The translations under genes were made by a program, and so were the position numbers. Positions 5,643 to 21,511 of a stretch of 64,000 bases of DNA are shown one piece after another. How positions within the stretch are numbered: the stretch's first letter is position 1; each line of letters starts with the position of its first letter. The notes below the pieces were generated by a model. It worked only from the letters and a program-made list of their open reading frames with translations, made no database searches and was not told the DNA's origin. Source of the DNA: Candidatus Micrarchaeota archaeon (GTDB lineage Archaea; Micrarchaeota; Micrarchaeia; Micrarchaeales; CABMGC01); contig JAKASF010000001.1 of NCBI GenBank assembly GCA_021828295.1, positions 2,702 to 66,701 on the forward strand, written 5' to 3'.

Positions 5643-6011
5643 ATGGCGATAAACAAGTTGCAGGTCCTGCTTTATACCATTACTTTGGCTAGCATAGTGT
5701 CGGTTGTGCTAGGAGACAGCCTCCTGAGCTCGCTCTCTGCGACGCTCTGCGGCTTCGTCACAACCATAAGGACCATAATAGGCGTTCTCGCGCTTGCTCT
5801 CTTCCTTATAGGTGGAGTTCTATATGCAATAGCCCACTTCCTCCCAACATCTCTCGATTATAGGAAGAACCTGATGGGCTGGTCCACCGCAATGATAGTC
5901 GGAGGCATAATCGGCCTCGTAGTGGTCATAATAGCGCAGCCGCTGGTTACGCTCTTCATCCAAACGGGCAGCGCCGCCGGAGGGAGCGTCTCGAGCATCT
6001 TCTGCCCTTAA
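5643..6011 (+). CDS. Small two-helix membrane protein, VirB2/TrbC/CedA1-like pilin candidate (locus A)
   Basis: 122 aa. The order is a signal-like N-terminus (MAINKLQVLLYTITLASIVSVVLG), a hydrophobic helix (IIGVLALALFLIGGVLYAIAHF), a short basic loop (LPTSLDYRKNLMGW), then a second helix (STAMIVGGIIGLVVVIIAQPLV). It is a paralogue of 62893..63270: LFLIGGVLYAIAHFLPTS aligns with LFIVAGIFYAIGQLFPAT. Confidence 0.6.
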   Translation: MAINKLQVLLYTITLASIVSVVLGDSLLSSLSATLCGFVTTIRTIIGVLALALFLIGGVLYAIAHFLPTSLDYRKNLMGWSTAMIVGGIIGLVVVIIAQPLVTLFIQTGSAAGGSVSSIFCP

Positions 6012-6036: not shown

Positions 6037-7938
6037 ATGCGATTAGAGCGGGGCAGGCTTACCTATCTTGAGCTCTTTGTCCTGCTCGTGCTGTTCATAC
6101 TCAACGCCGGTATAGCGCTCCTCTACTTCTACATCTCTCCCGGCGCAGCCTTCTTCAGCGCGGCGTTCGTGCTCTCCGCCATAGCGTTCATCATCGCCTA
6201 CGTGCTCGGGCGCCACTCCGCGTCCCGCAGAGACGGTTCCATAGACCTGCTTCACGCCCTCTTCTCGCTCTCTCTTTTCTCGTACCTGATGTCCTTCCTT
6301 ACTGCTGGAGATGCGGCACTAGGTCTCGCTGTCAAGTTCATCATCTCGCTGCAGTCCATGGGCCTCTGGCTGGTGCTCCTCATCCCCATATTCTTCCTCT
6401 CCTTCACAAGCGTCTACTTCCTGAGGAAGGAGCGCAGGAGCAACCCCGCTGCAAAGCTCGCGCTGCTTGCAGTGGTCTTGCTGATTCTTATCCTGTACTA
6501 CTTCGTTGCGCTCAAGGGCATCTTCACCGCCGATGACGAGGAGCTGCTCAAGCTGACCAGCGTCTCGATGCTGCTCAACGGCACCAACCCCTACGCCTCG
6601 TCGATCTCCCTGCTCCTATACCAGCATACGTCTACGATAGGCGCCACGCTCACCACCGCAAACACCTTCCTCGGCACCATGGACTATCCGGCCCTCTTCT
6701 TCCTCTCCTTCGTGCCATTCTACTTCGCGGCGCAGCCTGTCATAGGAAGCCTCAACACCGTATACGGACCCCTGCAGTTCAGCACCTTCCTCTTCATACT
6801 CATCGTTGCGTTCACGCTCCTGCTCAGGCAGAGGCAGCTTATGCGGCCGCAGCTCACGCTCATGCTCGTCTTCGTTCTCGCCGCCACGGAGCTGTCTTCC
6901 ATAACCACCTACCTCATGCTTGCGCTTCTGCTCATCGCCTACGCGAAGATAGAGTCGAGATATGCGTGGCTTCCCCTCGGACTCTGCCTCTCGCTGCAGC
7001 AGGAGCTCTGGCTGCCAGTCTTCCTGCTCTTCGCCTACTCTTTCAACAACCAGGGATTCGGGAGAGGCATGCGCAACGCGATCGGCGCAGCCGTGGTCTT
7101 CCTGGTATTCAACGCCTACTTCATAGCCATAAATCCCGAAGCCTACTTCGGCTCCATCTTCGGCACGCTCAACCAGCTCATCATGCCCTTCAACCCCTCG
7201 CCCATCGCCTTCCTCATGCTCAAGTCTTACCAGCTGCCGCTCACCTCCTATCCAGTGGTCTTCGAGGCGCTTGCGCTCCTGCTCGGGCTCGCGTTCCTCT
7301 ACCTCAACAGGAAGCCGCTGATTCCCCTCTTCGGCCTGCTGCCATTCCTTGTGCTCGACCACATACTCGTCTCCTACTACGCCTTCTTCCTCTTCTTCCT
7401 GCTCTTCGCGCTCTTCACCTACGACCGCGAGAATCGCGCGGGATGGATAGAGAAGCGGCTGCGCGAGCACAGGCGCGGGTTCTTCGCCCTGCTCGCCATC
7501 ATCGCGCTCTCCACCCTGATCTTCGTCTATGCATCGCACTCGGCATACGAGCGGAACTTCAGCATTGGCGTGGTCAACCAGACGCTGTCGGTCAACAGGA
7601 CGAGCAACACCACAGTGCTCGACGCGCAGCTCGTCTACAGCAACATGAGCAACAGCACTCTCTACGTCTTCGCTTTCAAGTACTACGGAGTATCGGCAGG
7701 CTTCTCAGGCCTGCTGAACCAGAGCCTGATAAGCGAACCGCAGGCCTGCCCCGGCGGCAACTACACCTGCCTGGTGAACGTGAACAGGATAGAGCTCGCC
7801 AGCTCCTCGGGCACCTATCCGCTGCGGCTCACCATACACTGGTCCAACGCCAGCGATGAGGTGAAGGACGTCGCCGTTGCACTGTACAACAGGCAGTACT
7901 TCTACGTTGCGGACAGCGTCGGGGCTTCCGGAGCCTGA
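6037..7938 (+). CDS. Large polytopic membrane protein, GT-C-type glycosyltransferase-like, with sequon-rich C-terminal ectodomain
   Basis: 633 aa with more than 12 TM spans. The loop motif DDEELLKLTSVSMLLNGTNPY resembles the acidic-loop/'G-x-NPY' feature of DUF2029/PMT-like GT-C enzymes. The C-terminus carries many N-x-S/T sequons. Confidence 0.45.
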   Translation: MRLERGRLTYLELFVLLVLFILNAGIALLYFYISPGAAFFSAAFVLSAIAFIIAYVLGRHSASRRDGSIDLLHALFSLSLFSYLMSFLTAGDAALGLAVKFIISLQSMGLWLVLLIPIFFLSFTSVYFLRKERRSNPAAKLALLAVVLLILILYYFVALKGIFTADDEELLKLTSVSMLLNGTNPYASSISLLLYQHTSTIGATLTTANTFLGTMDYPALFFLSFVPFYFAAQPVIGSLNTVYGPLQFSTFLFILIVAFTLLLRQRQLMRPQLTLMLVFVLAATELSSITTYLMLALLLIAYAKIESRYAWLPLGLCLSLQQELWLPVFLLFAYSFNNQGFGRGMRNAIGAAVVFLVFNAYFIAINPEAYFGSIFGTLNQLIMPFNPSPIAFLMLKSYQLPLTSYPVVFEALALLLGLAFLYLNRKPLIPLFGLLPFLVLDHILVSYYAFFLFFLLFALFTYDRENRAGWIEKRLREHRRGFFALLAIIALSTLIFVYASHSAYERNFSIGVVNQTLSVNRTSNTTVLDAQLVYSNMSNSTLYVFAFKYYGVSAGFSGLLNQSLISEPQACPGGNYTCLVNVNRIELASSSGTYPLRLTIHWSNASDEVKDVAVALYNRQYFYVADSVGASGA

Positions 7939-7982: not shown

Positions 7983-8714
7983 ATGGCCAGCCTGATCGAG
8001 GACGCGTGGGAGACGTACGCGAAGAACATAAGGCTAGTGCTCCTCTTCTCCATACCGTTCATAATCGCATTCCTCATTCCCGCTCTGGTTCCCGTGCCCA
8101 CGTACATCTCGAGCGGCGCCATCTTCCTGAGGACCGCTAGCATCTTCCTCAACCTCAACCCCGCGGCACTCGCGATAATAGTCATCTCCCTGTTCATCTC
8201 CCTGCTCTTCCTCAGCTTCGCCTTCGTGGCGATAAGCCTCATAGTAAAGGCCGAGAGAACTTTCACCAAGCACCCCGCAGCCGTGTTGCGCGGCGTGGAG
8301 CAGTATACGGGCAGGGTCTTCATAGTGCTTCTAGTGTATGCGCTCATCCTGCTTGGCGTCAATGTACTCGGCTACTTCCTCAACCTGCAGGGCCTGCTCA
8401 CTGCAATCGTGGGCTTCTTCCTCTTCATGGCCATCTTCTACGCGCCCACAGCTATTGTGATAGACAACAAGCGCATAGGCACGGCGCTCAACCAGAGCCT
8501 AGAGCTTGTGGCGAAGCAGCCCGGCTACTTCATCATGTGGGTCGTGGTGCTGGTCTTCGTTGTGGGCGTGGTCGACTTCGCTGTGATACACGCAACGGGC
8601 ACGCTGCTCTCCAGCTACATAATGCTCGTCCTGAACTCGCTCCTTATTCTTCCCTACTTCGTCATCTTCCAGGCCGAGGCCTACATGAAGAGGTTCTCGA
8701 TACTCAAGCATTGA
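7983..8714 (+). CDS. Polytopic membrane protein (243 aa), unknown function
   Basis: About 6 TM spans and no recognisable catalytic motif. It lies between the pilin-like gene and the paralogue array. Confidence 0.6.
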   Translation: MASLIEDAWETYAKNIRLVLLFSIPFIIAFLIPALVPVPTYISSGAIFLRTASIFLNLNPAALAIIVISLFISLLFLSFAFVAISLIVKAERTFTKHPAAVLRGVEQYTGRVFIVLLVYALILLGVNVLGYFLNLQGLLTAIVGFFLFMAIFYAPTAIVIDNKRIGTALNQSLELVAKQPGYFIMWVVVLVFVVGVVDFAVIHATGTLLSSYIMLVLNSLLILPYFVIFQAEAYMKRFSILKH

Positions 8715-8738: not shown

Positions 8739-8766
8739 GATGCGTATTTCAGTATGTGAAGAGAGA

Positions 8767-9930
8767 ATGAGGGGTAATCTTGCGCTTCTTCTCATTTCAA
8801 TTCTGCTGCTAGCCGGATCTGCGGCCGCAGCCCCCGCACCGACAAATCCGCTGACCTGCATCTCCTCCGCGCCGGCGATAGGCGGCAGCGCGATAAGCAT
8901 AGCGCTCGTTGCCCTACTCGTCTCGCTCAACGTAATCGCCATAGGCTACATAATCAGCAAGCTCGTGCCCGGGACAAAACTGGGCGACTGGGTGAGGAGC
9001 GAGTTCTGGGAGGTGGCAAAATCTGGCATGCTGATCGCCGGCGCGTTCGCCGCCATCGTGTTCATAGGCAACGTCTCCTCCATACTCGCCGGCCCCGGTG
9101 CCGTATCGGCTGGAACGACATCGAGCTTCGCGGCCTCCGCCTCTCTGGTCAACGGCGCATGCAGCTATCTCAACGGCGAGCAGGTCTTCATGTCAGATGC
9201 TTTCAACTATCTGCTAGGCATAGCCGGGAGCCTAGGCGCTCTGGCGCAGCTGCAGGTGAGCGCCTATTTCCCGTACCCTCCCGTGCCCGTGGGGTTCCTG
9301 CCGGTCGACTTCCAGTTCGGTTTCCGACTCAACCCGTACAAGAACGGCATGCTCACCGTCGTGTCCAAGACACAGTGGAAGTCGATCCTCGGAGACTCCA
9401 TCTACCTCATAGCGCTGCCTGTGTCGTTCATCATCTCGCTGCAGATCACAATGCTTCCCATACTCTACCTGCTGGGAATAGGCATGCTGATACCTATGGG
9501 GATAATCTTCCGGGCGTTCCCGTTCACCAGAGGCATAGGCGGAGCCCTGTTCGCCATTGGGGTCGGCGTTTCACTCATCTACCCTACGCTTCTGGTGCTG
9601 CTCAATGCCCCGGTCACCAGCGCGCTGCAGACCCTGAGCGCTCCGGAGGCGCAGTCCGGAGCCTGCAACTTCAATTGGCTTATATGCGGCCTTGCAAGCC
9701 CCCTCCTCTCGATGATTAGCTCGTTCCAGGGCATCGGCACCGCGTTCGCAAGCTTCAGCAGCATCTTTCCCGCGCTCAACGGCATACTCTCATACGCCGC
9801 GTTCATGATACTGCAGTTCGTACTTTTCGTGCTCGATCTCGCCATAACTTATTCGCTCGCCAACAACATAGCCGGAGTGCTAGGCGGCACGATAAGGCTG
9901 GAGATAGGAGGCAAGCTTAAGCTGAGGTAG
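8767..9930 (+). CDS. Polytopic membrane protein, array paralogue 1 (VirB6/TrbL/CedA-like candidate)
   Basis: Signal-like N-terminus MRGNLALLLISILLLAGSAAAAP. Family motif IIFRAFPFTRGIGGALFAIGVGVSLIYP. The C-terminal tail ...GVLGGTIRLEIGGKLKLR is shared with the other paralogues. Confidence 0.7.
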   Translation: MRGNLALLLISILLLAGSAAAAPAPTNPLTCISSAPAIGGSAISIALVALLVSLNVIAIGYIISKLVPGTKLGDWVRSEFWEVAKSGMLIAGAFAAIVFIGNVSSILAGPGAVSAGTTSSFAASASLVNGACSYLNGEQVFMSDAFNYLLGIAGSLGALAQLQVSAYFPYPPVPVGFLPVDFQFGFRLNPYKNGMLTVVSKTQWKSILGDSIYLIALPVSFIISLQITMLPILYLLGIGMLIPMGIIFRAFPFTRGIGGALFAIGVGVSLIYPTLLVLLNAPVTSALQTLSAPEAQSGACNFNWLICGLASPLLSMISSFQGIGTAFASFSSIFPALNGILSYAAFMILQFVLFVLDLAITYSLANNIAGVLGGTIRLEIGGKLKLR

Positions 9931-9931: not shown

Positions 9932-11326
9932 GTGATGTTCGGCATAGCAAGTATACTGCTGGATGCGTCGACACCCAGCCCCACCGCCGCGTGCGGAGTC
10001 CAGGCGGCATCTGGCTGGCTCGGGATAGACGGTCTGGTGGTACTCGCCATAGTGACAGTTGCCGCGTTCATCTACGTGCTTGCAAACTTCCTTCCAGCGG
10101 CGAGGCGCGAGAAGCTGCGCGGCGCAGCGAACTACGAGATACTCGAGGCGCTCTTCAGCCTTGCCTTGGTGGTCGTGCTCTTCGTGGCGTGGTCAGCGGC
10201 GTGCAACATAGGCCCGCTCCTGACCCAGTCGACTACATCTACTTCAACGTATCAGGGGCTCTTCGGCGCAGACACGACGTATCTCGGCAACCTGCTCTAC
10301 CTCAACGGCGTCAACCTGGTCAGCAACCTCTACTCTACGTCGATAGGCTACATGATCGTTGCCAACATCTGGTACCTAGGCGCTACGGAAACCGCTAACT
10401 TCTTCGGCAGCAATCCGGTCAGCGTCCTCGGGAAGACGATCCCCGGAGCAACCTCGTCGCTGAACCCGCAGGTTGACGTCCTCTTCACCGAGTTCTCCGA
10501 ACTGTTCACCGCCATCTACGGCGCCCTGCTTGTCGGCGCTTTCAGCACCCTCTTCGTGCTCTCGTTCATCCTGCCCATAATAGAGGCCGGGGCCTTCGCC
10601 GTGGTCATACCCGTGGCGATAATAATGCGTTCGATCCCGTTCGCAGGCCCTGCGCTGAGGCGCACGTCCAACGCGTTCATAGCCTTGGCCATCGGCTTCT
10701 ATCTCGTGCTCCCCCTCATGATCGCATTCAACTCCTACGTCGCCACGTGCCTCAACATACCATACGGCGGCGGAACCGCCTCGTGCAACTACCTCAACAG
10801 CTTCCCTCAGATAAAGCAGTACCTTTCCGGCTATGCCAGCGTCGGCTCCCTCACCTCCGCAACAGCATCGATCTTCACGTCAACCGCAACGTCCGGCTAT
10901 GTCTCATCCAGCGGCTTAAGCGGGGTTAGCTGTGCCTCGCCAGACGACTACGTGTATGAGAGCACATGTGGGGATTCAAGCACCATAAAGCCCGGGAGCT
11001 GTCAACCCTTCTCATCTATCGAGAGCCAGGTCTGCGGAACGTACGCGATAAGCGGAACGAGCAGCAGCTACCTGCCCACAGGCGCGGCCACGCCGCTGAC
11101 CTTCTACAGCACCGCCTTCACCGGGCTTAACCAGTTCATCACGGAGATGTTCAACAGCCCCCAGGAGGCCGAGTACTACGGCAGCGCGGTCGCGTCCTAC
11201 CTCTTCCTGAGCGTAGTGATGCTTGCGATAGACCTGGCGATAACGGTCGGGTTCGTCTACGGCCTCTCAAAGGCCCTGGACTCTTTCGGCCAGCTCTTCG
11301 GCAGCGGGCCGGTATTGGGTGAATGA
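9932..11326 (+). CDS. Polytopic membrane protein, array paralogue 2, with one Cys-rich YVYE module
   Basis: GTG 9932/ATG 9935, 1 nt after the previous stop. Motif IIMRSIPFAGPALRRTSNAFIALAIGFYLVLP. Loop CASPDDYVYESTCGDSSTIKPGSCQPFSSIESQVC. Confidence 0.7.
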   Translation: MMFGIASILLDASTPSPTAACGVQAASGWLGIDGLVVLAIVTVAAFIYVLANFLPAARREKLRGAANYEILEALFSLALVVVLFVAWSAACNIGPLLTQSTTSTSTYQGLFGADTTYLGNLLYLNGVNLVSNLYSTSIGYMIVANIWYLGATETANFFGSNPVSVLGKTIPGATSSLNPQVDVLFTEFSELFTAIYGALLVGAFSTLFVLSFILPIIEAGAFAVVIPVAIIMRSIPFAGPALRRTSNAFIALAIGFYLVLPLMIAFNSYVATCLNIPYGGGTASCNYLNSFPQIKQYLSGYASVGSLTSATASIFTSTATSGYVSSSGLSGVSCASPDDYVYESTCGDSSTIKPGSCQPFSSIESQVCGTYAISGTSSSYLPTGAATPLTFYSTAFTGLNQFITEMFNSPQEAEYYGSAVASYLFLSVVMLAIDLAITVGFVYGLSKALDSFGQLFGSGPVLGE

Positions 11327-13227
11327 TGCAGCGCTTTGTGTTTGTCTTTGCTCTGCTCGCGTTCGCGGGCCTCTTCGGCAGCGGAGTCGCGGCAAGCACT
11401 AGCAGCACCCTCATCACTCCCTACTCGGCCTTCCAGGGATGGCTCCCCATAGTCTTCCTCGGCATACTCGTCAGCATAATGATCACCGCCTTCTACTACG
11501 TGCTCGGTGTCCTGCTTGACAACAAGAACGTGAAGAGCAGGGCCGTGGGAGAGTTCGCTCAGGCCACCGGCACAGCCATGCTCGTGGTGATAATACTGGG
11601 AGTCTTCGCCCTCATGGGCACCGGGCAGCTCTCGTTCGTATCGCTGCTCTCGCAGTCTTCGCTCGGCACCGTCTGCGGCCAGCTATACAGCTCGCCCCTA
11701 ACGCTGCTGGCCAACCAGCAGCCATCTGGAGTGCCCACGGCCACTAACACGATATGCGAATCCGCAACAGGTTCGCTCGGGGATCCGGTCACGAATAGCG
11801 TGGATTACGGACTGTACGCAGCGTACATAGTGATGGACAACCTCACAACCCAGGCTGCGAACAACATGAACGCGATGTACCTGACAGAGGGTTGGCTAGG
11901 CTTCCTTGCAAACTTCAACGCTTACGTGCAGGTCTGTGCCCCGCAGGACACCTGCATAGTGCCCCTGGCGCCCAGGGTGTTCAACATCCAGACGCAGTAC
12001 ACGCCCCTCGCCGGCTACACCTCTCTCACAACGCTGCTCAACCCGGTAGAAACAGAGTCGGTGCTCACATTCTATATCCTCTTCATACAGATGCTCGTGA
12101 TAACCATATTCCTCTACGCCTGGCCGTTCATTCTCGCGGCAGGCATACTGCTCAGGTCGACGTTCTTCACCAGAAAACTGGGTGGACTCCTGGTTGCGAT
12201 AACGCTTGCCATGGTGGTGGTGCTCCCTCTTACATATCTACTAGAGTACACCGCTTTTACGAACCTGAACCTTGGCCCGATAGGTGCAAGCAGCATACCC
12301 AACCAGGAGCTCTACGAGCAGAACGGCGCAAGCGTGGCAGTATACGGCATGCCTTCGCAGGGATACGTGCCAGCGTCTGCGGCAGGCGCGACCGGCTGCG
12401 CACCTTCCGATTATGTTTATTCTACAACATGCACCGCTCCATATTCCATAGGCAGCTCGCCGGCATGCGTGCCGTTCTCGCAGGCGCAGACGAGACTATG
12501 CCTCCAGGGCGGTTACGTGTCTGCTACGACAACCCAGAACCTACACAGCTCGTGTGTCGGTTCTTCGCACGGTAGTGTAGGATATGTGTATGAAACCCAG
12601 TGCGGTGTTCCCGATACCGCAGGTCAGCAATGCTCGTCCGACCCTTCACCTTCAAGCCTCTGCCCGACCAGCGGCTACGTGCTTTCGTCTTCGCTCTCCA
12701 CAAATCTCTGCGACCCGAGCACGCCCTACATATACGAGACCACGTGCGGAGACAGCTCTAGCATTGTGTCAAGCTCCTGCACAGCCAATCCTGTAAATTC
12801 AGGCACGGGGCAGGTGAACCTGTGCGTCGCGCCGCTCGACGCCAACATCAACTTCTTCGTGCTGCCCAACGTCGGCCAGGTGACCGGCTACTACGGCTGC
12901 AACGTTGGCGGTGACCTGCTCGCCAACGAGCTGGAGTTCGCCTCATGGTACCTCACTCCGCTCAATGCGTACTATGCGTTATCGCTTGCCGGGGGCCTGA
13001 TCGGGTCGCTGCCGCAGACTCCGCTCAACGGTTTCATACCAAACACGTGCACCCCAACAAACGCGCTCAACGCCGTCTTCGCGCTCGCAAACTCGTACGG
13101 TATAGTCTTCGTCTCCAGCATCTTCACTCTCATATTCAACGCCCTCATCGCGATCGCCGCTGTCTCGGGGCTGGCGACGCTGATGGGCGGTGACACAAGC
13201 ATACTCGGAATGGGTAGACTGATATGA
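11323..13227 (+). CDS. Polytopic membrane protein, array paralogue 3, with three Cys-rich modules
   Basis: ATGA start/stop overlap with paralogue 2. Motif ILLRSTFFTRKLGGLLVAITLAMVVVLP. Loops CAPSDYVYSTTC..., GYVYETQCGVPDTAGQQC..., PYIYETTCGDSSSIVSSSC... Confidence 0.7.
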   Translation: MMQRFVFVFALLAFAGLFGSGVAASTSSTLITPYSAFQGWLPIVFLGILVSIMITAFYYVLGVLLDNKNVKSRAVGEFAQATGTAMLVVIILGVFALMGTGQLSFVSLLSQSSLGTVCGQLYSSPLTLLANQQPSGVPTATNTICESATGSLGDPVTNSVDYGLYAAYIVMDNLTTQAANNMNAMYLTEGWLGFLANFNAYVQVCAPQDTCIVPLAPRVFNIQTQYTPLAGYTSLTTLLNPVETESVLTFYILFIQMLVITIFLYAWPFILAAGILLRSTFFTRKLGGLLVAITLAMVVVLPLTYLLEYTAFTNLNLGPIGASSIPNQELYEQNGASVAVYGMPSQGYVPASAAGATGCAPSDYVYSTTCTAPYSIGSSPACVPFSQAQTRLCLQGGYVSATTTQNLHSSCVGSSHGSVGYVYETQCGVPDTAGQQCSSDPSPSSLCPTSGYVLSSSLSTNLCDPSTPYIYETTCGDSSSIVSSSCTANPVNSGTGQVNLCVAPLDANINFFVLPNVGQVTGYYGCNVGGDLLANELEFASWYLTPLNAYYALSLAGGLIGSLPQTPLNGFIPNTCTPTNALNAVFALANSYGIVFVSSIFTLIFNALIAIAAVSGLATLMGGDTSILGMGRLI

Positions 13228-14570
13228 GGCCTAGCAAATACCTTGCATTTATCGCATTCGTCGCGATCTTTTCGATAGCTTCGGCTTCGTCAAGCATACT
13301 TCCCGGGCTCACCAACCTCTGCACTACCGAGCTCTCGGGCTCTCCAGGCAGCTTCACAAACGTGCCGACGAGCGCCATCGGTAACATAACTGGCATATCG
13401 CTGCTGATAGTGCTGCTCGTCTTCACTGTGCTCGGGCTCACGTACGGCGTAGGCATAGCGTTCGGGATAGAGAGCCTGCGCACCTTCACCAAGACAGAGG
13501 CGCTGGAGGGCGTTCTGACAGTAGCAATAATAGTCTTCGTTTCCGGCGGGCTGCTGTTCGCCGGAGGCGCAATCTCGTTCCTGTCGAACCTCGGTCTCAG
13601 CGGGCTGTCATCTGCCATCTCTACGATCTCGGGCTACGTTCCCGCCAGCTCCGTATCGGGCACTCCGTGCCCGTCAAGCAGCTACGTCTACGAAACATCG
13701 TGCGGCGATACCGGCAGCGCCACATTGCAAGCGTGGGTGCTGCAAGGCACATCGGTGGTTTACGACCAGTATACAGATTGCCGCAGCTCCTCCACCAAGA
13801 CCGGGCAGTCTATACAGCTCTACCAGATCTCCCAGTACGAATGCCCATCGAGCCCGCAGGCGGTCTCGTTCACCTCGTCGTACGACGTCTACAACAACCT
13901 CTGCAGCAATTTCATAAACACAGGCGTGAACAACGCCGTCGGCAACGCCATCTCCCCGATAGTCACCCTGTATCTGATTAACGCGCTGCACGACTCGAAG
14001 ATATCGCTCGCGCCCAACGGCGTCGGCGTTGTTTTCGAACCCTTCTTCGGGACGCAGCCGGAGATAACCATAATAGGGGACCAGCTTGGCGCGTACTTCG
14101 GCGTTACCATAATGTATCTCGGCCTCTCGTTCATGCTCATCTTCATCTATGCCGTATTCCCATTCTTCCTCTACGCCGGGGTGCTGCTGAGGTCGCTGCC
14201 GTGGACCCGCGCCGCCGGTGGCTCGCTCATAGCCTTCTTCTTCGCGTTCTACATACTCTTCCCGGCACTGCTCTACCCGTTCTCCATCTCAACCGTGACG
14301 GTCAACGGCTACCTGAACTCTCTGGGCGTGAGCGCCTACACCTCTTACGACCAGCTCACCGGCGTGGCAACCCAGCTGAGCAGCTCCCTGTTCGGCATCG
14401 GCATGTCCAACGAGATCGCCGCCTTCGCGCAGTCGCTCGCGGGGATAGGAATCACATTCTTGGGAGTTATCATAGCAATAGTAGTCTGCTTCGACTTCGT
14501 TGAGGTGCTCGGAGACCTGCTCGGGGCTCCGTCACTGCATTCCAGGAACCTGCTGAGCAAGGTGATATGA
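13224..14570 (+). CDS. Polytopic membrane protein, array paralogue 4, with one Cys-rich module
   Basis: ATGA overlap with paralogue 3. Motif VLLRSLPWTRAAGGSLIAFFFAFYILFP. Loop GYVPASSVSGTPCPSSSYVYETSCGDTGS. Confidence 0.7.
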   Translation: MRPSKYLAFIAFVAIFSIASASSSILPGLTNLCTTELSGSPGSFTNVPTSAIGNITGISLLIVLLVFTVLGLTYGVGIAFGIESLRTFTKTEALEGVLTVAIIVFVSGGLLFAGGAISFLSNLGLSGLSSAISTISGYVPASSVSGTPCPSSSYVYETSCGDTGSATLQAWVLQGTSVVYDQYTDCRSSSTKTGQSIQLYQISQYECPSSPQAVSFTSSYDVYNNLCSNFINTGVNNAVGNAISPIVTLYLINALHDSKISLAPNGVGVVFEPFFGTQPEITIIGDQLGAYFGVTIMYLGLSFMLIFIYAVFPFFLYAGVLLRSLPWTRAAGGSLIAFFFAFYILFPALLYPFSISTVTVNGYLNSLGVSAYTSYDQLTGVATQLSSSLFGIGMSNEIAAFAQSLAGIGITFLGVIIAIVVCFDFVEVLGDLLGAPSLHSRNLLSKVI

Positions 14571-14571: not shown

Positions 14572-15621
14572 ATGAACGCGCTGCCATTTATGCTGACGAT
14601 CCAGAGCTACCTCACGTCGCCGCTCAATTACTGGTTCCCGGTAGCGTTCACTGCCGCCGTTGCGGTGATAGCAGTGCTCGCCATGATACTCATGTTTGGC
14701 TCATTCGTGGGCGCCGAGAGGCTGAGGGCGTGGGTGCGCGCCAAGATCTACGACGTGCTCATGTCCATAGTGCTCATGCTCGTCTTCCTCGCCGCAGTCA
14801 CGGCCGTGTTCTCGCAGAACGTGGTTCAGGTATTCAGCGCCGTGGGCCTGGCGCCCGGCGCGTGCACCGGCAGCGGATCGGGCACAGACCTTACCTCGCT
14901 TGCGACGTGCGACATGTGGAATTTCAATGGCTATGTGCAGACCTTTAACATCATAATCTTCTGGACAGCGCTGCGTTTCTCCTTTGTGCCCCAAATAGAT
15001 CTGAGCTACGAGGGTCCCTACTCGGGTACCGGCTTCGAGACCAAGATAACGCCGACACCGTCCGCGCTGGACAGCTTTGAGGGCTACCTTCTCGACGCGC
15101 TGTACACAGCGTTCGTGATCTCGCAGGTTCAGCTTCTGCTCCTCGGGGCGTCGCTGCTGCTCTTCTCAGTGCTTATGAGCGTGGGCCTGATATCTAGGCT
15201 TTTCGTGGTCACGCGCAGCTTCGGCGGAGCGCTGATAGCGCTAGCCATGGGCCTCGGGATAATCTATCCGTTGATGGTGAGCATCATCTACGGCTACATA
15301 GACGTCGGCATCTCAAGCGCATGCGTTGCTTCCGTGAGCGGCACCCCAATCTGCCTGATAGCCGATATCCCGGCGATCCTGACGTTGGTAAACGGCGTAA
15401 CCCTCCTGGTTGTCGGGATAGTGGTGCAGGGGGTCGTGGGTATCGCGGGCATCTCGCTCCCATTCCTCTTCCAGTTCTTCGAGATCGCAGGATTCGTCGG
15501 GGTAGGCTTGGTGATAGCCCCGGTGCTGACGTTTCTTATGGTAGATGTGTTTGTCATAGACTTTTCGCAGGTAGTGGGCGAGCGCATGGACTTCATGTCC
15601 CTGCTCACCGGAATCATATGA
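14572..15621 (+). CDS. Polytopic membrane protein, array paralogue 5
   Basis: Starts 1 nt after the previous stop. Motif GLISRLFVVTRSFGGALIALAMGLGIIYP. C-terminal tail FVIDFSQVVGERMDFMSLLTGII. Confidence 0.7.
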   Translation: MNALPFMLTIQSYLTSPLNYWFPVAFTAAVAVIAVLAMILMFGSFVGAERLRAWVRAKIYDVLMSIVLMLVFLAAVTAVFSQNVVQVFSAVGLAPGACTGSGSGTDLTSLATCDMWNFNGYVQTFNIIIFWTALRFSFVPQIDLSYEGPYSGTGFETKITPTPSALDSFEGYLLDALYTAFVISQVQLLLLGASLLLFSVLMSVGLISRLFVVTRSFGGALIALAMGLGIIYPLMVSIIYGYIDVGISSACVASVSGTPICLIADIPAILTLVNGVTLLVVGIVVQGVVGIAGISLPFLFQFFEIAGFVGVGLVIAPVLTFLMVDVFVIDFSQVVGERMDFMSLLTGII

Positions 15622-15631: not shown

Positions 15632-16813
15632 ATGATCGGAAGAAAGGAGATCGCAATCTGGCTCGTGGTCCTGGCCGCGCTGCTAGCAGGAACTGCGTTT
15701 GCCGCGGTCCCGTCCTCAAGCGCATCATCGAGCTCCTCCGGCTGCACCATCTCCGCATTCGCGGGCGAGATCTCCCCTTGGTACTGCAGCCAGCTCAACC
15801 AGGCAGTTGCAAGCGTGTGGTACGAGTGGGCGCCTGTCGTGTTCATCGCGGTCCTGCTCTCTTTCTCGATATCCGCACTGATATTCCTCACAGGTGTAGC
15901 GATGCGCAGCGAGAAGCTGAGGAATTTTGGCATCGGCGAGCTGTACGAGACAGTGGCGACGCTTCTGATAGCCGCGTTCTTCCTTCTCTTGTCGGCCATA
16001 CTCTTCGGCATCCTTCCGTTCCCGATAACCGGCCCGCTAAATCCCTACACCACCTCGCTCACCTACATAGGCCATGTCATAAACTCCACGCAGACCCTGA
16101 TAACGAGCATGTACAATCCCATCATGATAGACTCCATGTACGCAAGCATCTCGCTCGGGGTCTGCGTTGGCAAGAGTACCGAAGCCAATGGCTGCGAAGG
16201 AAACACGCAATCGGCTTCTGGCGTCTCGGGATCGGGAGTTGCCACGCGGCTCGCAGGGGGCCTGGCGCAAAACGTGTTCAACAAGCTCGCTCCGGCGATC
16301 GCGCAGTTCTTCCTCATACCCGCAAACGCGGTCATGGGACTGCTGTCGGACGGCCTGCTCGCCCTCTACGCCGAGTTCTACTTCATACTCTTCTTCATGT
16401 ACATATCCATACCCGTGCTCCTCGTTCCTGGCGTGGTCCTCAGGGCCATCTTTCCGCTCAGGGCGGTGGGGGGCATGATGATAGCCGCGGCGTTCTCCTT
16501 CTTCCTTGTCATGCCTGTGCTCTTCAGCGTGGCGTACATACTCACGAGCCCCGGCCTGGTCTACCAGCTCAACCAGCAGGCGGCGCTGATAAGCGCCAAC
16601 GGGCAGGGCACGTCAGCGCAGACGAACGCGGACAGCGCGTCATCGGTACTGGCCCAGGAGGTGCAGGGGGTGCAGAGCGAGATGGGCGGCTACTTCCTGT
16701 CTGTGCTTTTCTACCCCGCGCTCATACTCGCGCTCTCCTATACAACGATGACCATAATCGCCGACTTCATAGGCGGCGCGTCGCAGATGAGCAGCAAGCT
16801 CAGGCTGATATAG
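15632..16813 (+). CDS. Polytopic membrane protein, array paralogue 6
   Basis: 10-nt spacer containing a purine-rich GAGGA. Motif VVLRAIFPLRAVGGMMIAAAFSFFLVMP. C-terminal tail IIADFIGGASQMSSKLRLI. Confidence 0.7.
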   Translation: MIGRKEIAIWLVVLAALLAGTAFAAVPSSSASSSSSGCTISAFAGEISPWYCSQLNQAVASVWYEWAPVVFIAVLLSFSISALIFLTGVAMRSEKLRNFGIGELYETVATLLIAAFFLLLSAILFGILPFPITGPLNPYTTSLTYIGHVINSTQTLITSMYNPIMIDSMYASISLGVCVGKSTEANGCEGNTQSASGVSGSGVATRLAGGLAQNVFNKLAPAIAQFFLIPANAVMGLLSDGLLALYAEFYFILFFMYISIPVLLVPGVVLRAIFPLRAVGGMMIAAAFSFFLVMPVLFSVAYILTSPGLVYQLNQQAALISANGQGTSAQTNADSASSVLAQEVQGVQSEMGGYFLSVLFYPALILALSYTTMTIIADFIGGASQMSSKLRLI

Positions 16814-16857: not shown

Positions 16858-17688
16858 TTGGCTATTTCGCAGAAGTTCCTTTTCTCGATCCTGATGCTAA
16901 TCTCGCTGATATTCATAATAGGCATCTACCTGCTCGATGTGCCAGCAGTCTTCAAGCTCGTGCTTGCAGTCCTCGCGCTCGCCTTCGACCTTCTCGCCTT
17001 CTCCACAAAGCTCTACATGAGTTTCTTCATCCCGTTCCTGAAGGCCAAGAACCGCACCGTTACCCTGGAGGCCGACGAGGCGTTCAACATGGCTCCCTCG
17101 GGCAACGCGATAGTGGTCAGGAGGGGCGGCAGCGTGTACGCCAGCGCATTCATCACCATACCAACCTACAGGTCCGCCACCGAGATGAACAACGAGGAGA
17201 AGATAGATTTCGCCAGGCTGTTCAGCAGGGCGCTCACTATATCGAAGAGCTCGGTCAAGTTCGCGACGCAGCTCTACGTGATCAACAAGGATGCTTACAT
17301 AAGCAACATCCGCGGCAGGCTCGACGAGGCGGAGGAGAAGTACCAGAACGCGAGCATGAACCCGCAGATGAAGAAGGCTGATTCGGAGCGCACACGCGGA
17401 GAGGCCACAATGTGGCACAACCTCTACGACAACGTCAACAAGGTGGGCTCTCAGGCCCTGGAGGCGTTCGCGATGGTCAGCGCCGAGGGCGGCACCGAGG
17501 AGGAGGCGATAAACCTGGTGCTCCAGCGCGCCGACGAGATAGCCTCTGGGGTAAGCTCCGTCTTCGGCGTCAGCGCCGCGGTGGTGGAGGGCGAAGACCT
17601 GCTGAGGTTCGTGGAGCCCGACCACATGATACCGCCAATAACAGTTGGCGAGCAGCTGCGCGAGAAGAACATGGCTGCTGAGATGTAG
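16858..17688 (+). CDS. 2-TM + soluble-domain protein, copy 1 (VirB3/VirB4-N-terminal-like candidate)
   Basis: TTG start about 30 nt downstream of ATTATAAAT (16817-16826). Two N-terminal TM helices are followed by ...KSSVKFATQLYVINKDAYISNIRGRLDEAEEKYQ. It is a paralogue of 17697..18521 and 61153..61884. Confidence 0.6.
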   Translation: MAISQKFLFSILMLISLIFIIGIYLLDVPAVFKLVLAVLALAFDLLAFSTKLYMSFFIPFLKAKNRTVTLEADEAFNMAPSGNAIVVRRGGSVYASAFITIPTYRSATEMNNEEKIDFARLFSRALTISKSSVKFATQLYVINKDAYISNIRGRLDEAEEKYQNASMNPQMKKADSERTRGEATMWHNLYDNVNKVGSQALEAFAMVSAEGGTEEEAINLVLQRADEIASGVSSVFGVSAAVVEGEDLLRFVEPDHMIPPITVGEQLREKNMAAEM

Positions 17689-17696: not shown

Positions 17697-18521
17697 ATGG
17701 ATGAACGCACGATGATTTATCTTGGCTCGACGTGCCTGCTCGCGATAGTGATAATGGCGAGCTCCGCGGAATTCGGCAGCCTGTGGATAATCGCCTTCTT
17801 CCTTTCGATACTCGCCATAATGCTAATCTTCATACTCAACTACGCCGATTTCGTCGTGTTTCCGCTGTTCACATCGCTGCTGGGGGTCAAGATAGTGCCG
17901 GCGAAGAACTACTACATGCCAAAGGACAGCAGCAGCATAGTCAAGAACGTGGGCGGCATCTACTATGCAACGGGCTACCTCACAGCCAACGTCTACAACT
18001 ACGTCTTCGCCGCGGAGAGCGTGGACGAGGACGAGGCCGCGAAGCTGTCCGAGGGCCCCGACAAGTGGGAACGCATAGTAATGAACGCCGGCTTTCCGTT
18101 CAGGTTCAGCTTCGTCTCCGTCGCCGAGGACGTGCAGCGCTACAGGGACGAGCTGGAGGGCAAGCGCGGCGTCCTGGAGTTCCAGCTTTCCAAGGAGATG
18201 AGCAGCAGCACGCCGAGCGAGCTCACGATACAGGACCTGCAGAGGAAGATGAACGTGATAGACGCGAGGATAAACAGGCTGTCTGCTGGGGAGCGTCCCG
18301 TCGACTCCATCATGTATGTGGAGAGCACGGCCGTCGGGGTGAGCGAGAAGGAGGCGATAGACTCGCTGTCGAACCAGCTGGCTCACCTGCAGACACTGTT
18401 CAGCGCCTTCGACCTCAGCATAACGCGCGTGGTCGGCAGGGAGCTCTACCACCTCTTCACCTACAACTACGTGGTGCCCACCCGCGATGCGCTCGCGGAC
18501 ACGTTCAGCGCAGAGAGGTAG
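17697..18521 (+). CDS. 2-TM + soluble-domain protein, copy 2
   Basis: Two N-terminal TM helices. AGFPFRFSFVSVAEDVQRYRDELEGKRGVLEFQLSK aligns with ADFPFEFGLGVRSVEHVRILDALEEKRRLKEIELAR of the locus B protein. Confidence 0.65.
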   Translation: MDERTMIYLGSTCLLAIVIMASSAEFGSLWIIAFFLSILAIMLIFILNYADFVVFPLFTSLLGVKIVPAKNYYMPKDSSSIVKNVGGIYYATGYLTANVYNYVFAAESVDEDEAAKLSEGPDKWERIVMNAGFPFRFSFVSVAEDVQRYRDELEGKRGVLEFQLSKEMSSSTPSELTIQDLQRKMNVIDARINRLSAGERPVDSIMYVESTAVGVSEKEAIDSLSNQLAHLQTLFSAFDLSITRVVGRELYHLFTYNYVVPTRDALADTFSAER

Positions 18522-18561: not shown

Positions 18562-20067
18562 ATGAGCCTCGTAAGACTGCAGAACATAATGAGCAACGAG
18601 CTTGCAAAGCGCACCATATTCAGCAGGCCCCCGGAGCCGCCGCAGGAGTACCTGCTCAACGATCCCACGGAGTCCATATTCATAGGCATAACGAAGCTCT
18701 TCCACGTTCCGTTCACCTGGACCTTCGCCAGCCTCACGAACCCGCACGTCGCCGTCGTGGGAATAACAGGCGCAGGAAAGAGCTTCTTCGTCAAGACCTT
18801 CCTGACAAGAGCCAGCTACATCTGGAACACGAACGCGATAATAATCGACTGGGCCGGGGAGTACAAGGCCTGGGTCAAGCAGAGCGGCGGCGTCGTGGTC
18901 TCCCTGGGCAAGGGCGACTACATAAACATAATGGACCTATCGGGGATGAAGCCGGTTGACAGATCGAAGCAGATAATAGGATCGTTCGAGATACTCACTG
19001 ACATAAGCGACTACCCCGAGCAGAAGAGGCTCACGGTCGAGGCAGTGGAGCAGGCCTATGTCAACTTCGGTTTCGCTATGGCGGACCCTCCGCCCCCTGG
19101 CAAGGAGTCGCCGACGCTGAAGGACGTGATCGGCCTGCTGGAGGAGAAGCTGCAGGAGGGAACGTACCAGTACCCTGCAGAGCTGGAGAACGCGGTCTAC
19201 AGGCTGAGGCAGTTCGCAAGGGAGGGCGAGGACTACTTCGCGAGGAAGAGCACCATAGATCTCGGCAAGCTCGCGTCGTCGGGGCTTGTTGCCATCGACC
19301 TGTCCAACCTTCCAGACGAGAAGTTCAGGGCGCTCGCCGCGCTCTTCATACTCCAAACGCTCAAGGAGAAGATGCGCATGGAGGGATGGAGCGCCTCCAA
19401 GGGCCTCAAGGCGCTTGTCGTGCTCGACGAGGCCTGGAAGGTCGCGAGCGACGAGAGGAGCGACGCAGTGATGATAGTCAGGGAGGGAAGGAAGTACCAG
19501 TTCGGGCTGATAGTCGCATCGCAGAACCCCACGGACATAAACGAGGCCATCTTCTCGAACGTCGGCACCACTATAATGCTCAGGATAAGGTTCGAGAAGT
19601 TCCTGGACTACCTGCAGGGCTCGCTCAACTTCTCAGACTTCATGCGCAAGGAGATAAGCAAGTTCGGAGTGGGGCAGGCGGCCATTGACATGTCCTTCCA
19701 GACCAGCGTGCAGTTCCCCGAGGTCTTCCTGATAGAGAGGGTCGTGGGCGAGATACCCCTCGACGTGTACACAATCACCATAGCTGACGTTCTCAGCCAG
19801 CAGGAGCTTTCCGACGCGAACGTGCAGAAGGAGTACTACTTCGAGAAGATAGACCTCAACTCAAAGTTCATACAGTCCAACGTCAACTCCGAGGCTATAA
19901 ACAACATCTTCAAGGAGCTGGACACGAGGAACCGCATGGTAGACGTGCGCAGCCTCGTGCAGGTGATGAGCAACGAGAAGGTCGGCAAGGACACGATAGT
20001 CGAGCTCCTCAGGAGCGTCGGGCTCTCCGACGCTGTCATCACCAAGGTCTTCGTATACGTAACATAG
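18562..20067 (+). CDS. VirB4/TrbE/CedB-like P-loop ATPase (FtsK-HerA superfamily), locus A
   Basis: Walker A VAVVGITGAGKSFFVK. IIIDWAGEY. Walker B ALVVLDEAWKVASD. LIVASQNPTDI. I moved the start from the track's 18487 to the ATG at 18562 (MSLVRLQ...), because the upstream extension is Arg-rich and overlaps the previous gene. Confidence 0.8.
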   Translation: MSLVRLQNIMSNELAKRTIFSRPPEPPQEYLLNDPTESIFIGITKLFHVPFTWTFASLTNPHVAVVGITGAGKSFFVKTFLTRASYIWNTNAIIIDWAGEYKAWVKQSGGVVVSLGKGDYINIMDLSGMKPVDRSKQIIGSFEILTDISDYPEQKRLTVEAVEQAYVNFGFAMADPPPPGKESPTLKDVIGLLEEKLQEGTYQYPAELENAVYRLRQFAREGEDYFARKSTIDLGKLASSGLVAIDLSNLPDEKFRALAALFILQTLKEKMRMEGWSASKGLKALVVLDEAWKVASDERSDAVMIVREGRKYQFGLIVASQNPTDINEAIFSNVGTTIMLRIRFEKFLDYLQGSLNFSDFMRKEISKFGVGQAAIDMSFQTSVQFPEVFLIERVVGEIPLDVYTITIADVLSQQELSDANVQKEYYFEKIDLNSKFIQSNVNSEAINNIFKELDTRNRMVDVRSLVQVMSNEKVGKDTIVELLRSVGLSDAVITKVFVYVT

Positions 20068-20074: not shown

Positions 20075-20371
20075 ATGGCCGGAACCTTCACCATAAGCAG
20101 GATAGAGCTAAAGCGCATGCTCACCACCCTCGGCGTGAGCGAGCGCAGCATAGACGGGCTCGTGGCCGAGCTCAACAAGATGCACAGGCACGCCAACGCA
20201 GTTGCCTTCGCGGGCATGCTGCAGAAGGCGGGGCTGAAGGAGGGCGACGTGGCCAACGTGCTGAGGCGCATAGGCATAGACGACATCTCGATAACGAGCG
20301 TATTCGACACGCTCGAGGAGGAGCGCATAAGGAGCGCCTACGGGCGGGTTGTCGACATAGTGCTTGAGTAG
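20075..20371 (+). CDS. Small helical protein (98 aa) built from 'LxxxG[ILV]' modules
   Basis: MLTTLGVSERSIDGLV, MLQKAGLKEGDVANVLRRIGIDDISITSVF. The same module occurs at the C-termini of both locus ATPases (LLRSVGLSDAVITKVF; LRKLGIGEDELADSF). Confidence 0.55.
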   Translation: MAGTFTISRIELKRMLTTLGVSERSIDGLVAELNKMHRHANAVAFAGMLQKAGLKEGDVANVLRRIGIDDISITSVFDTLEEERIRSAYGRVVDIVLE

Positions 20372-20380
20372 GAGGTATAT

Positions 20381-20737
20381 TTGCCAAAGACTGTTTGCAT
20401 AATATGCGGGAAGGAGAAGAGAGGCATAGACGTAGCCGACGACCTCGTGCTCGACTCTATAAGGTGGTTCAAGCAGAACGTAACGCACAACGAGCGCGGC
20501 AACAGGCTCGTGGTGTGCAGGGAGTGCTATCCGAAATACGCGGCTAGCAGGAAGAAGTTCGAGTCGAGGCAGAGGCTCTACCTTGGCCTTGGCATAGTCT
20601 TCGCGCTGCTCAACGTGACGCTTTCCAGGACGCTTGCCAGCGTTGGCATCTCGCTGCTCATCCTGCTCCTCTTCATCTGCTTCTCCCTGATGAGCTACTC
20701 GCCAAGGATAAACATAAAAAAGCAACATAGTCAATAG
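20381..20737 (+). CDS. Zinc-ribbon (CxxC...CxxC) protein with two C-terminal TM helices
   Basis: TTG start 4 nt after a GGAGGT (20371-20376). CIICGKEK...VCRECYPKY, then LGLGIVFALLNV / ISLLILLLFICFSLM. Confidence 0.55.
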   Translation: MPKTVCIICGKEKRGIDVADDLVLDSIRWFKQNVTHNERGNRLVVCRECYPKYAASRKKFESRQRLYLGLGIVFALLNVTLSRTLASVGISLLILLLFICFSLMSYSPRINIKKQHSQ

Positions 20738-20767
20738 TAATCTGTTGGCAGAGATGGGCGTGAGCTA

Positions 20768-21502
20768 GTGCAGGAAGAGGCATCGGCTGCTGAGGCGGAG
20801 CCGAAGGTCGAGCAGGTCGAGTTCCCCGGCAGGCTACTAACCAGCGTGGACGACGTGAAGCAGAAGCTTTCGGGCATACCCTTCTACACCCTTCAGGCAG
20901 GCGCAGGCGGCCTGGAGATAGCAAGGGTAGAGAGCAGGAACATACACAAGAAGCCTTTCCTGTTCTACATAATAGACATAGGCTCAAGCTCGCTCAAACT
21001 CACATACTCGATAGTGCCTGGAAGCAGCGAGAGGCTTAGGCGGGCCGAGGTGATAAGGAACCTGGCGTCGCTGCTCTCTGTCGTGAGCGAGAGCTTCAAG
21101 ATAGACGATAGCAAGTTCTTCCAGTACGTGGACTCGGTGCTGGGCAGCCTGATGGAAGGCCTATCGCAGAGCTACAGCACGCTGTTCAACAAGTACGACG
21201 CGCTGCTCAACGAGTACGTGGAGGCGAAGAAGCTGCTCAGGGAGCTCGAATCCTCGAACAGGAACCTCACCATACAGACGAGCAAGCTGAGCGAGGACAC
21301 CAAGGCGCTCACCGCGCAGCTCAAGTCGCTGGAGACGTACTCCGACGAGGCCCTCATGTCGATGGTCCAGGAGTGGATAGAGGTGCACAACAGCTCCGTC
21401 GACATAGGCGAGTTCTCGAAGACGTACAAGGTCCCCGAGCCGAGGATCGAGCAGATACTCGACAAGATGGTCTCCATGGGCTACATAGAGCTGAAGAGTT
21501 AG
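20768..21502 (+). CDS. Coiled-coil protein with C-terminal winged-helix (locus A)
   Basis: GTG start, 244 aa. The central region LLNEYVEAKKLLRELESSNRNLTIQTSKLSEDTKALTAQLKSLE is a coiled coil. The C-terminus IGEFSKTYKVPEPRIEQILDKMVSMGYIELKS is wHTH-like. It is a homologue of 59358..60041. Confidence 0.6.
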   Translation: MQEEASAAEAEPKVEQVEFPGRLLTSVDDVKQKLSGIPFYTLQAGAGGLEIARVESRNIHKKPFLFYIIDIGSSSLKLTYSIVPGSSERLRRAEVIRNLASLLSVVSESFKIDDSKFFQYVDSVLGSLMEGLSQSYSTLFNKYDALLNEYVEAKKLLRELESSNRNLTIQTSKLSEDTKALTAQLKSLETYSDEALMSMVQEWIEVHNSSVDIGEFSKTYKVPEPRIEQILDKMVSMGYIELKS

Positions 21503-21511
21503 CTGGTTCGC

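Follow-up and report, generated by a model that had tools for sequence, protein, structure and literature searches.

What is the cysteine-rich module that recurs in three consecutive membrane-protein genes of a Micrarchaeota genome, where is it displayed, and to which kind of system do its carriers belong? These questions are raised by a stretch of 64,000 nucleotides (contig JAKASF010000001.1 of assembly GCA_021828295.1, positions 2,702 to 66,701), referred to here as the window; all window coordinates given below lie on its + strand. A preliminary description, made from the letters alone, had drawn attention to the repeats and had suggested small knobs outside the cell, but had missed that they sit on subunits of what appears to be a conserved machine, whose genes also include a conjugation-type pilin and an ATPase of the VirB4/HerA type. 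We consider it probable that the module is an interchangeable and probably disulfide-stabilised surface decoration on a machine that resembles type IV secretion systems (T4SSs) and the archaeal Ced and Ted systems.

The molecular basis of host attachment and host exploitation by DPANN archaea is largely unknown, and cryo-tomography has revealed structures spanning the envelope and tubes between cells for which no genes have been assigned (PMC11329633). A conserved chromosomal Micrarchaeota cluster that combines a conjugation-type pilin and ATPase with an unprecedented set of six membrane paralogues and a domain-swapping hot spot provides concrete candidate genes for study in the few cultured Micrarchaeota. 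The module itself would constitute a new small domain family, rich in predicted disulfides, and clearly exemplifies how a domain can be passed from one paralogous subunit to another.

Five copies of a four-cysteine module

Module copies were located by regular expression and translation, and their pairwise similarity was assessed by Smith-Waterman alignment against 2000 composition-preserving shuffles. In addition, an independent hidden Markov model (HMM) was built from 48 module instances, all of them from genomes other than that of the window, and was used to search the 1050 six-frame open reading frames (ORFs) of the window. This model recovers exactly five stretches with E-values from 3.5e-11 to 4.6e-9, followed by a next match at E = 0.39. 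One copy lies in the second of a series of tandem paralogues, P2 (residues 321-368; 10892..11035; E = 2.9e-9), three lie in P3 (copy a, residues 346-393, 12358..12501, E = 4.6e-9; copy b, residues 396-447, 12508..12663, E = 5.4e-10; copy c, residues 450-501, 12670..12825, E = 3.5e-11) and one lies in P4 (residues 136-207; 13629..13844; E = 5.6e-11). These are the same five copies that had been reported between 10892 and 13844, and no further module was found in the window. The P2 and P3 copies are located in the second long loop (loop 2), in P2 before the last transmembrane (TM) helix. Unlike these, the P4 copy is located in loop 1 after TM3, which corrects the preliminary description.

The homology of the repeats is borne out by the shuffles and by the HMM. 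In the six copy pairs that do not involve copy b of P3, z-scores range from 6.4 to 13.2 and the observed score was reached by 0 of the 2000 shuffles. Pairs with copy b, the most divergent one, are weaker (z = 2.3-4.4), and this copy is nevertheless included among the five stretches that the HMM recovers. No nucleotide likeness exists between the module copies; recent gene conversion between them is thus rejected, and the duplications are old.

Each of the five copies contains four cysteines (5/5). This agrees with the even number noted earlier, but in the P4 copy, which has a long spacer between C2 and C3, the third and fourth cysteines (C186 and C207) lie downstream of the truncated string that had been given for it. 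Likewise, P2, P3 and P4 are indeed paralogues, but they are numbers 2-4 of a larger set of six tandem genes, P1-P6.

Module family and predicted fold

Profile searches, iterated over every protein and locus collected, converged on 54 unique instances of 45-70 amino acids, with the consensus xGYVP-x6-9-C1-x3-5-YVYExxC2G[DN]PxT-x3-6-C3-x6-10-LC4P. G4, C2, C3 and C4 do not vary, and C1, E25 and G29 reach at least 90% conservation; the motif (G4, E25, G29 and the four cysteines) is sharply conserved across 39-54 instances. The distances between the cysteines are long and variable, with 10-25 residues between C1 and C2, 9-30 between C2 and C3, and 8-20 between C3 and C4.

When copy c of P3 was modelled in isolation by AlphaFold with a 35-row module alignment, the mean predicted local distance difference test score (pLDDT) was 74.5, with values of 81-85 over residues 1-40, and all five models scored 71-75. 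Predicted strands cover GYV, YIYE and the stretch immediately before C3. Most likely, the module folds into a unit of three beta strands held together by two disulfides. The first module of a single clade (L014, L015 and P0030) has neither C1 nor C3. Because these two cysteines were lost jointly, a pairing of C1 with C3 and of C2 with C4 is hinted at, and we tentatively assign the disulfides in this way. The earlier proposal of disulfide-stabilised knobs is therefore plausible in view of the cysteine conservation, the outside location and the confident small beta fold, with the disulfides themselves a matter of prediction.

The profile and structure searches that had been recommended did not lead to a known domain: the module matched no family in Pfam or NCBIfam, a sequence-profile search of the PDB returned nothing significant, and Foldseek comparison of the module model with the PDB gave no match at E <= 10. 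The statement that the module does not correspond to a named domain thus holds for these databases, and it is probably a previously undescribed small extracellular domain. It is also distinct from the PKD domain, which sits at the same P3 insertion site in other Micrarchaeota: the module is shorter and unrelated in sequence, and the window proteins have no match to PF00801 or PF18911.

Variable insertion site and number of copies

In P3, the modules lie in loop 2 between a conserved '...VYG' and a conserved 'INFFVLPN'; in the window the sequence 'NINFFVLPN' follows directly after copy c and closes this insertion hot spot. Some P3 orthologues have no insert here (e.g. L013, L044 and L025), one has a single module (L008), several have two (L001, L006, L009, L011 and L012), and three are present in the window, in L005 and in P0025. 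Other cysteine-containing inserts occupy the hot spot in L026, L038 and L043. Owing to the loop-2 inserts, the P3 orthologue ORFs, counted from stop to stop, vary between 467 and 978 amino acids. The copy number does vary between related genomes, as had been suspected: P3 carries 0-3 tandem copies depending on the lineage, and P4 and P2 carry 0 or 1. The P4 copy is a clean insertion that the window shares with L005 and L010 alone; L001, L006, L008 and L012 lack it. The P2 copy occurs only in the window genome; none of the P2 orthologues examined has it, not even that of L005, the closest relative. In the lineage of the window, copies of the module were thus also placed in P4 (loop 1) and in P2 (loop 2).

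Further inserts were observed in other P3 orthologues. PKD domains occur in those at L028:10001-11671 and L029:4719-6482, and SprB/immunoglobulin-like repeats in L050:9443-11371 and, weakly, in L032:9914-12838 (975 amino acids), either at the module site or in other outside loops. P2 orthologues that lack the module have a stretch of the form 'SG-x-V-P/S ... GL-x-G-L/V-S' at the insertion point (window 10880-10930, about residues 318-333 of P2). The P2 module may have taken its GYV strand from this pre-existing loop sequence, so that only the part with the cysteines was inserted.

Within the data that could be reached, the module is confined to the P1-P6 protein family. When JGI metagenomes were scanned at the DNA level with the degenerate motif YVYE[ST]xCG[DN]P, five stretches were obtained. 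Three of them belong to P3 orthologues with the same neighbouring genes, and the remaining two match by chance, out of frame.

Topology of the six paralogues

The six paralogues share a common plan. The chain opens with a TM hairpin, which may be preceded by a signal-like helix and whose connecting loop is basic ('E-K-L-R'). The long loop 1 then leads to two TM helices that are linked by the conserved loop 'R-S-x-P-F-T-R-x-x-G-G', and the long loop 2 leads to the final TM helix, after which the protein ends in a short, basic C-terminal stretch. Lysine and arginine are concentrated in the short loops that are predicted to be cytoplasmic, and the long loops are nearly free of them, with one such residue in the 286 amino acids of P3 loop 2. 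In our own segmentation, the large majority of the 46 cysteines in P1-P6 fall into predicted outside segments, i.e. the long loops and the segment after the first helix. PKD_4 domains are present in P3 loop 2 of L028 and L029 (33.1 and 29.7 bits, gathering score 27), and one P1 orthologue has a PKD domain just behind the signal-like helix, in the N-terminal outside segment. Because of the positive-inside pattern, the cysteine distribution and the PKD domains at the same site in orthologues, the modules are predicted to be extracellular, in line with the display outside the cell that had been proposed for them.

A short basic-hydrophobic tail is conserved at the C-terminal ends of P1-P6: P3 orthologues finish with '...GLSRLI', P6 with 'KLRLI', P4 with 'SKVI' and P1 with 'KLKLR' (examples at 13210-13227 and 16796-16813). 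It could serve as a docking motif on the cytoplasmic side.

An ancient set of membrane paralogues with a pilin candidate and an ATPase

P1-P6 are 5-6-helix proteins that recognise one another with hhalign probabilities of 95-99.5%. P1 (396 amino acids; 8740..9930) scores 98.2-99.5% against P2-P6 and has 1:1 orthologues at the same position. P2 (464 amino acids; 9932..11326), P4 (448 amino acids; 13224..14570), P5 (349 amino acids; 14572..15621) and P6 (393 amino acids; 15632..16813) were assigned by alignment, synteny and hhalign, and P5 and P6 carry no module. P3 (634 amino acids; 11323..13227) is the largest subunit, and its TM core is modelled with a pLDDT of 85-95. The paralogy is ancient, because each member has 1:1 orthologues. 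Exactly six P paralogues, together with two paralogues of a second type (D1 and D2), are present in every locus examined (about 58 Micrarchaeota loci). The number of six equals the subunit number of the hexameric ATPase family. At E <= 1e-3, the P-family profile matched 2766 cluster representatives in 1.84 billion proteins.

The cluster encodes a pilin candidate, U0 (122 amino acids; 5643..6011), with a signal peptide and two hydrophobic helices that are separated by a basic loop. Among its 22 orthologues, 11 match PF04956 TrbC (best 8.5e-6) and nine match PF18895 T4SS_pilin (best 9.6e-7). Furthermore, R388 TrwL aligns with the U0 profile over its full length (hhalign 38%). Both the architecture read from the sequence and the Pfam matches of the orthologues therefore correspond to a VirB2/TrbC-type pilin. 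U0 has two cysteines with at least 90% conservation among the 22 orthologues: C36 ('LCG') lies at the start of the mature part, and C121 takes the last position or the one beside it. TrbC and VirB2 pilins undergo head-to-tail cyclisation, and by analogy an end-to-end disulfide between C36 and C121 would mimic it. The N-terminal TM hairpin of the paralogues resembles the pilin as well: against the U0 profile, hhalign gives 73% for P2 and 37% for P1, compared with at most 4% for controls consisting of seven unrelated membrane or bitopic families and of reversed sequences. A pilin-like N-terminal hairpin has likewise been reported for CedA/CedA1 and VirB6/VirB2 by Beltran et al. (PMC9905601).

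The ATPase (501 amino acids; 18562..20067) is VirB4/CedB/HerA-like and clearly belongs to the FtsK-HerA superfamily, as indicated by Pfam (DUF87, 6.9e-16; AAA_10, 1.9e-13; TraG P-loop, 3.1e-11), NCBIfam and PDB sequence matches. In NCBIfam, CedD (2e-19), the CD1110 VirB4-like family (1e-18) and CedB (1.4e-17) precede HerA, all of them far below the cut-offs. HerA and VirB4 are matched alike in the PDB, with VirB4 4ag5 giving the longest alignment (7e-9). A start at 18487 would give the longest ORF of this gene, which would then overlap D2; the start at 18562 is supported by orthologues and by public annotation.

Comparison with known systems

Ced of Sulfolobales and Aeropyrum and Ted of Thermoproteales are DNA-import systems that represent domesticated archaeal T4SSs (PMC9905601; PMC11868833). 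Like the Micrarchaeota cluster, they are chromosomal, combine a VirB2-like pilin with polytopic membrane protein(s) and an ATPase of the VirB4/HerA clade, and have no relaxase. They also share the pilin-resembling N-terminal hairpin of the membrane protein and paralogous duplications, as in CedA/CedE and CedB/CedD. In contrast to Ced and Ted, the cluster described here has six membrane paralogues in tandem and in fixed order, a further pair of paralogues that are bitopic, and one large component resembling a glycoprotein; no homology of P1-P6 to VirB6 was detected, the organism is a DPANN symbiont rather than a free-living crenarchaeon, and the cysteine-rich module has not been described in Ced or Ted proteins.

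The rvh T4SS of Rickettsiales (PMC2653234; PMC7648143), which is likewise found in obligate symbionts or parasites, offers a parallel in its consecutive paralogues of a polytopic subunit, some of which have large lineage-specific regions. Its subunits are, however, recognisable as TrbL/VirB6, their extensions are huge and mainly C-terminal instead of small cysteine-rich loop insertions, and the envelope is diderm.

Exposed T4SS parts have also been amplified and diversified in tandem in the Trw T4SS of Bartonella, where the amplified surface-exposed components are read as variant surfaces for host-specific adhesion. Several TrwI copies were found on one Bartonella chromosome (e.g. P0207/P0243 and P0225/P0265). 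In Bartonella, whole genes (trwL and trwJIH) were amplified recently, whereas the Micrarchaeota cluster features an inserted mini-domain in the ancient P1-P6 set.

Among ultra-small episymbionts, chromosomal T4SS-like clusters of an MPF-FATA-like type occur in Patescibacteria, the Candidate Phyla Radiation (CPR), and such a system was reported to be essential for epibiotic growth in Saccharimonadia (PMC12102498), which the Micrarchaeota cluster parallels. In Nanohaloarchaeota, 'SPEARE' proteins are single giant polypeptides with a VirB4/TraG-like ATPase domain and about 75 tandem extracellular immunoglobulin-like domains (PMC10266531). These systems resemble the present one in their relaxase-less T4SS-like genes, their repeated extracellular domains and the proposed host interaction, but neither has the six-paralogue set or the four-cysteine module.

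Proposed role of the modules and alternatives

We suggest that P1-P6, the pilin U0, D1/D2, the ATPase and the small proteins of the cluster together form a domesticated conjugation-type envelope machine. The six paralogues would constitute a membrane platform or channel, the ATPase would act on this platform, and the pilin would be assembled from it. The modules would be rigid knobs, resistant to acid and proteases and possibly glycosylated, which add length and diversity to the exposed crown of the platform, and they might function as spacers through the S-layer or as surfaces for host-cell contact. The P3 hot spot is empty in some lineages and in others holds one to three modules, a PKD domain or other inserts. 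The repeats and their family, the restriction to one protein family, the variation in copy number and the gene context are shown directly; the extracellular topology and the fold are predicted from sequence features and modelling; and the disulfides, the assembly and the role in adhesion or spacing are inferred, the last from the position of the modules and the equivalent PKD domains. The cluster is probably best filed as a relative of T4SS, Ced and Ted, with the six-paralogue set left outside VirB6. A more specific version, in which P1-P6 form a pseudo-sixfold heteromeric ring that matches the hexameric ATPase, builds with U0 a Micrarchaeota-wide conduit for host docking and for uptake of DNA or macromolecules, and has its partner specificity tuned by the modules or PKD domains at the P3 tip, is conceivable but on balance doubtful.

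Several points count against a decorated T4SS-like machine. The cluster is known here from genes and predictions alone. The pilin assignment rests on the orthologues, as the window copy of U0 stays below the threshold of PF18895 (E = 0.018), and the ATPase scores do not separate VirB4 from HerA. None of 96 P1-P6 orthologues matches TrbL in Pfam, hhalign of P1-P6 against a 120-sequence TrwI profile gives at most 1%, which equals the controls, and Foldseek of the P3 model against the PDB yields TrwI only at E = 2.1 and a TM-score of 0.30; a PDB profile search was negative as well, so that none of these tests makes P1-P6 recognisable as VirB6/TrbL. For the module, the disulfide pairing is based on one co-loss event, and in the full-length P3 model its region reaches a pLDDT of only 30-50, probably because copy-number differences scramble the alignment there. 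The module profile matched nothing in a database of 5.8 billion proteins, known members included, which makes its absence elsewhere less firm. Finally, identity within the modules (36-46%) is close to that of other outside loops (43-47%), so that the modules are not more divergent. Because of this similarity, no signature of diversifying selection beyond insertions and deletions is apparent, and diversifying hypervariability of the modules was rejected.

The most serious alternative retains the modules as surface decorations and questions the machine: the cluster would not be a relative of T4SS, Ced or Ted, but a distinct envelope machine with a HerA-type ATPase, serving the export of S-layer or surface proteins or cell division. 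Besides the missing VirB6 homology of P1-P6 and the nearly equal HerA and VirB4 scores of the ATPase, it is favoured by the fact that D1, D2, S1-S4 and BIG have no T4SS counterparts and that the genes of the cluster yielded no match to a relaxase or a coupling protein. However, two independent Pfam pilin models are matched by about half of the U0 orthologues, TrwL aligns over its full length, the hairpin of P1 and P2 is pilin-like in the manner of VirB6/VirB2 and CedA/CedA1 (PMC9905601), and a relaxase is missing from Ced and Ted as well. We therefore regard a distinct machine as unlikely, albeit worth keeping in view.

A second alternative concerns the module itself, which might be a neutral, expandable spacer, i.e. 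a serine/threonine-rich loop with cysteines that was duplicated by slippage, is tolerated at a permissive site and affects only loop length. The range of 0-3 copies, the many orthologues without a module, the composition rich in serine, threonine, glycine and proline, a conservation equal to that of the neighbouring loops and the low confidence of the region in the full-length P3 model are all compatible with it. On the other hand, the motif is sharply conserved and the isolated module folds confidently, the copies are old and lack nucleotide similarity, and the module has moved intact into different loops of two other paralogues and is replaced by PKD at the same site elsewhere. A neutral spacer is improbable on this evidence.

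It is still less probable that the module is a very divergent member of a known disulfide-rich domain, such as Sushi/CCP or a cystine-knot-like fold, instead of a new family. Sushi domains, which have about 60 residues, share with the module the count of four cysteines and a local GY...C...(W/Y)VY...C motif, and the tentative 1-3/2-4 pairing fits as well. The best match in the PDB profile search was a Sushi domain of C4b-binding protein, GYVRSHSTQTMTCNSDGEWVYNTFC, which aligned to GYV..C..YVYE..C without significance (E = 0.15). This alignment covers half a domain, and it equates C1 and C2 of the module with C3 and C4 of Sushi, so that the register is mismatched; moreover, the module has no conserved tryptophan, and Pfam gave no match to PF00084, EGF or the like, just as Foldseek returned nothing. 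The resemblance to NGF, QYFFETKCRDPNPVDSGC, is not significant either (E = 0.2) and has the wrong cysteine register.

An extracellular Cys4 unit that binds zinc, iron or copper, for example for sensing or sequestration in metal-rich acidic habitats, would suit the four conserved cysteines and the many related metagenome-assembled genomes (MAGs) whose isolate names were taken to denote acid-mine-drainage or hot-spring bins, but we consider it the least likely of all, as there are no CxxC or CxxH pairs, the spacings are long and variable, no histidine is conserved and E25 is the sole conserved acidic residue, the module is predicted to lie outside the cytoplasm in a probably oxidising habitat, and no metal-site family was matched in Pfam or the PDB.

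The surrounding gene cluster

The chromosomal cluster (window 5619-24022) is operon-like and comprises 17-19 genes in the order U0-U1-U2-P1-P2-P3-P4-P5-P6-D1-D2-ATPase-S1-S2-S3-(S4)-BIG, and this order is kept in essentially all of the approximately 58 loci that are long enough to show it. The cluster adjoins the housekeeping genes for Rpb4 and DUF655 even between genomes in which P3 is only 42% identical. Because of this synteny and the common housekeeping neighbours, the cluster is regarded as vertically inherited and not as part of a mobile element. An integrative and conjugative element or a plasmid was rejected on the same synteny in 58 loci and on the lack of a relaxase, coupling protein or integrase among the cluster genes in Pfam and NCBIfam.

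U1 (633 amino acids; 6037..7938) has about 10-12 TM helices and a C-terminal domain with many N-glycosylation sequons, is conserved by synteny and matches Wzy_C_2 weakly (E = 0.069). U2 (243 amino acids; 7983..8714) is a 6-TM protein, likewise conserved by synteny, with a weak match to the BPSS1780 family. Together with a DUF2079 protein (3.4e-27; window 4015-5553), U1 flanks the pilin gene, and both are large polytopic proteins; they might glycosylate the serine/threonine-rich loops or the pilin.

D1 (276 amino acids; 16858..17688) is predicted from hydropathy to consist of an N-terminal TM hairpin and a cytoplasmic domain of about 200 amino acids, and D2 (274 amino acids; 17697..18521) is its paralogue (hhalign 95.4%). 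Neither has a relative in Pfam or the PDB, and the D1/D2 profile retrieved only coiled-coil noise from the PDB. The ATPase gene is followed by four small genes identified as ORFs and by synteny, S1 (98 amino acids), S2 (118 amino acids), S3 (244 amino acids) and S4 (51 amino acids), at 20075..21667. S2 consists of a zinc ribbon and two TM helices, and S3 of a coiled coil and a winged-helix-like part. S2 was rejected as a VirB3, because the one weak match to PF05101 (E = 0.041) was repeated in 0 of 18 orthologues. BIG (783 amino acids; 21671..24022), the last conserved gene of the cluster, was delineated by ORF, synteny and hydropathy; it is a bitopic protein whose outside domain of about 540 amino acids contains many closely spaced N-x-S/T sequons and whose C-terminal domain of about 200 amino acids is cytoplasmic, and it belongs to no Pfam family. 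In L009, L011, L014 and L015, BIG is inverted.

A MoxR-type AAA+ ATPase (window 3105-4022) is encoded directly upstream of the cluster in many genomes. In the predicted MoxR-associated archaeal secretion system of Makarova et al. (2015), arCOG01314/DUF4350, vWA-domain and Ig-like S-layer-type proteins are found beside MoxR (PMC5898192). Such a system was rejected for the present cluster, as the genes scanned gave no DUF4350 or vWA match. Literature searches found no paper on this cluster in Micrarchaeota or other DPANN archaea, which does not exclude that one exists.

Origin of the window and its relatives

The window encodes topoisomerase VI subunit B, aIF2-gamma and CDC48, which identifies it as archaeal, and has a G+C content of about 57%. 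P3 is 100% identical to one protein of assembly GCA_027357515.1. In total, 24 homologues were found for P3, and those with a taxon name belong to Micrarchaeaceae or 'Marsarchaeota' MAGs; among the 58 related loci, the label is Micrarchaeota in nearly every case. The organism is accordingly assigned to this DPANN phylum.

Two loci with a full P1-P6 cluster were deposited under bacterial names, L059 (DATJMH010000008.1) as 'Saccharimonadales bacterium' and L056 (JAKBPE010000008.1) as 'bacterium'; these contigs are most likely mis-binned Micrarchaeota. In L010 (JAMCYP010000009.1, labelled Marsarchaeota), P3 and P4 are each broken into two ORFs at 9914-12495, which probably reflects frameshifts or assembly errors, and the taxon label of this contig is probably wrong.

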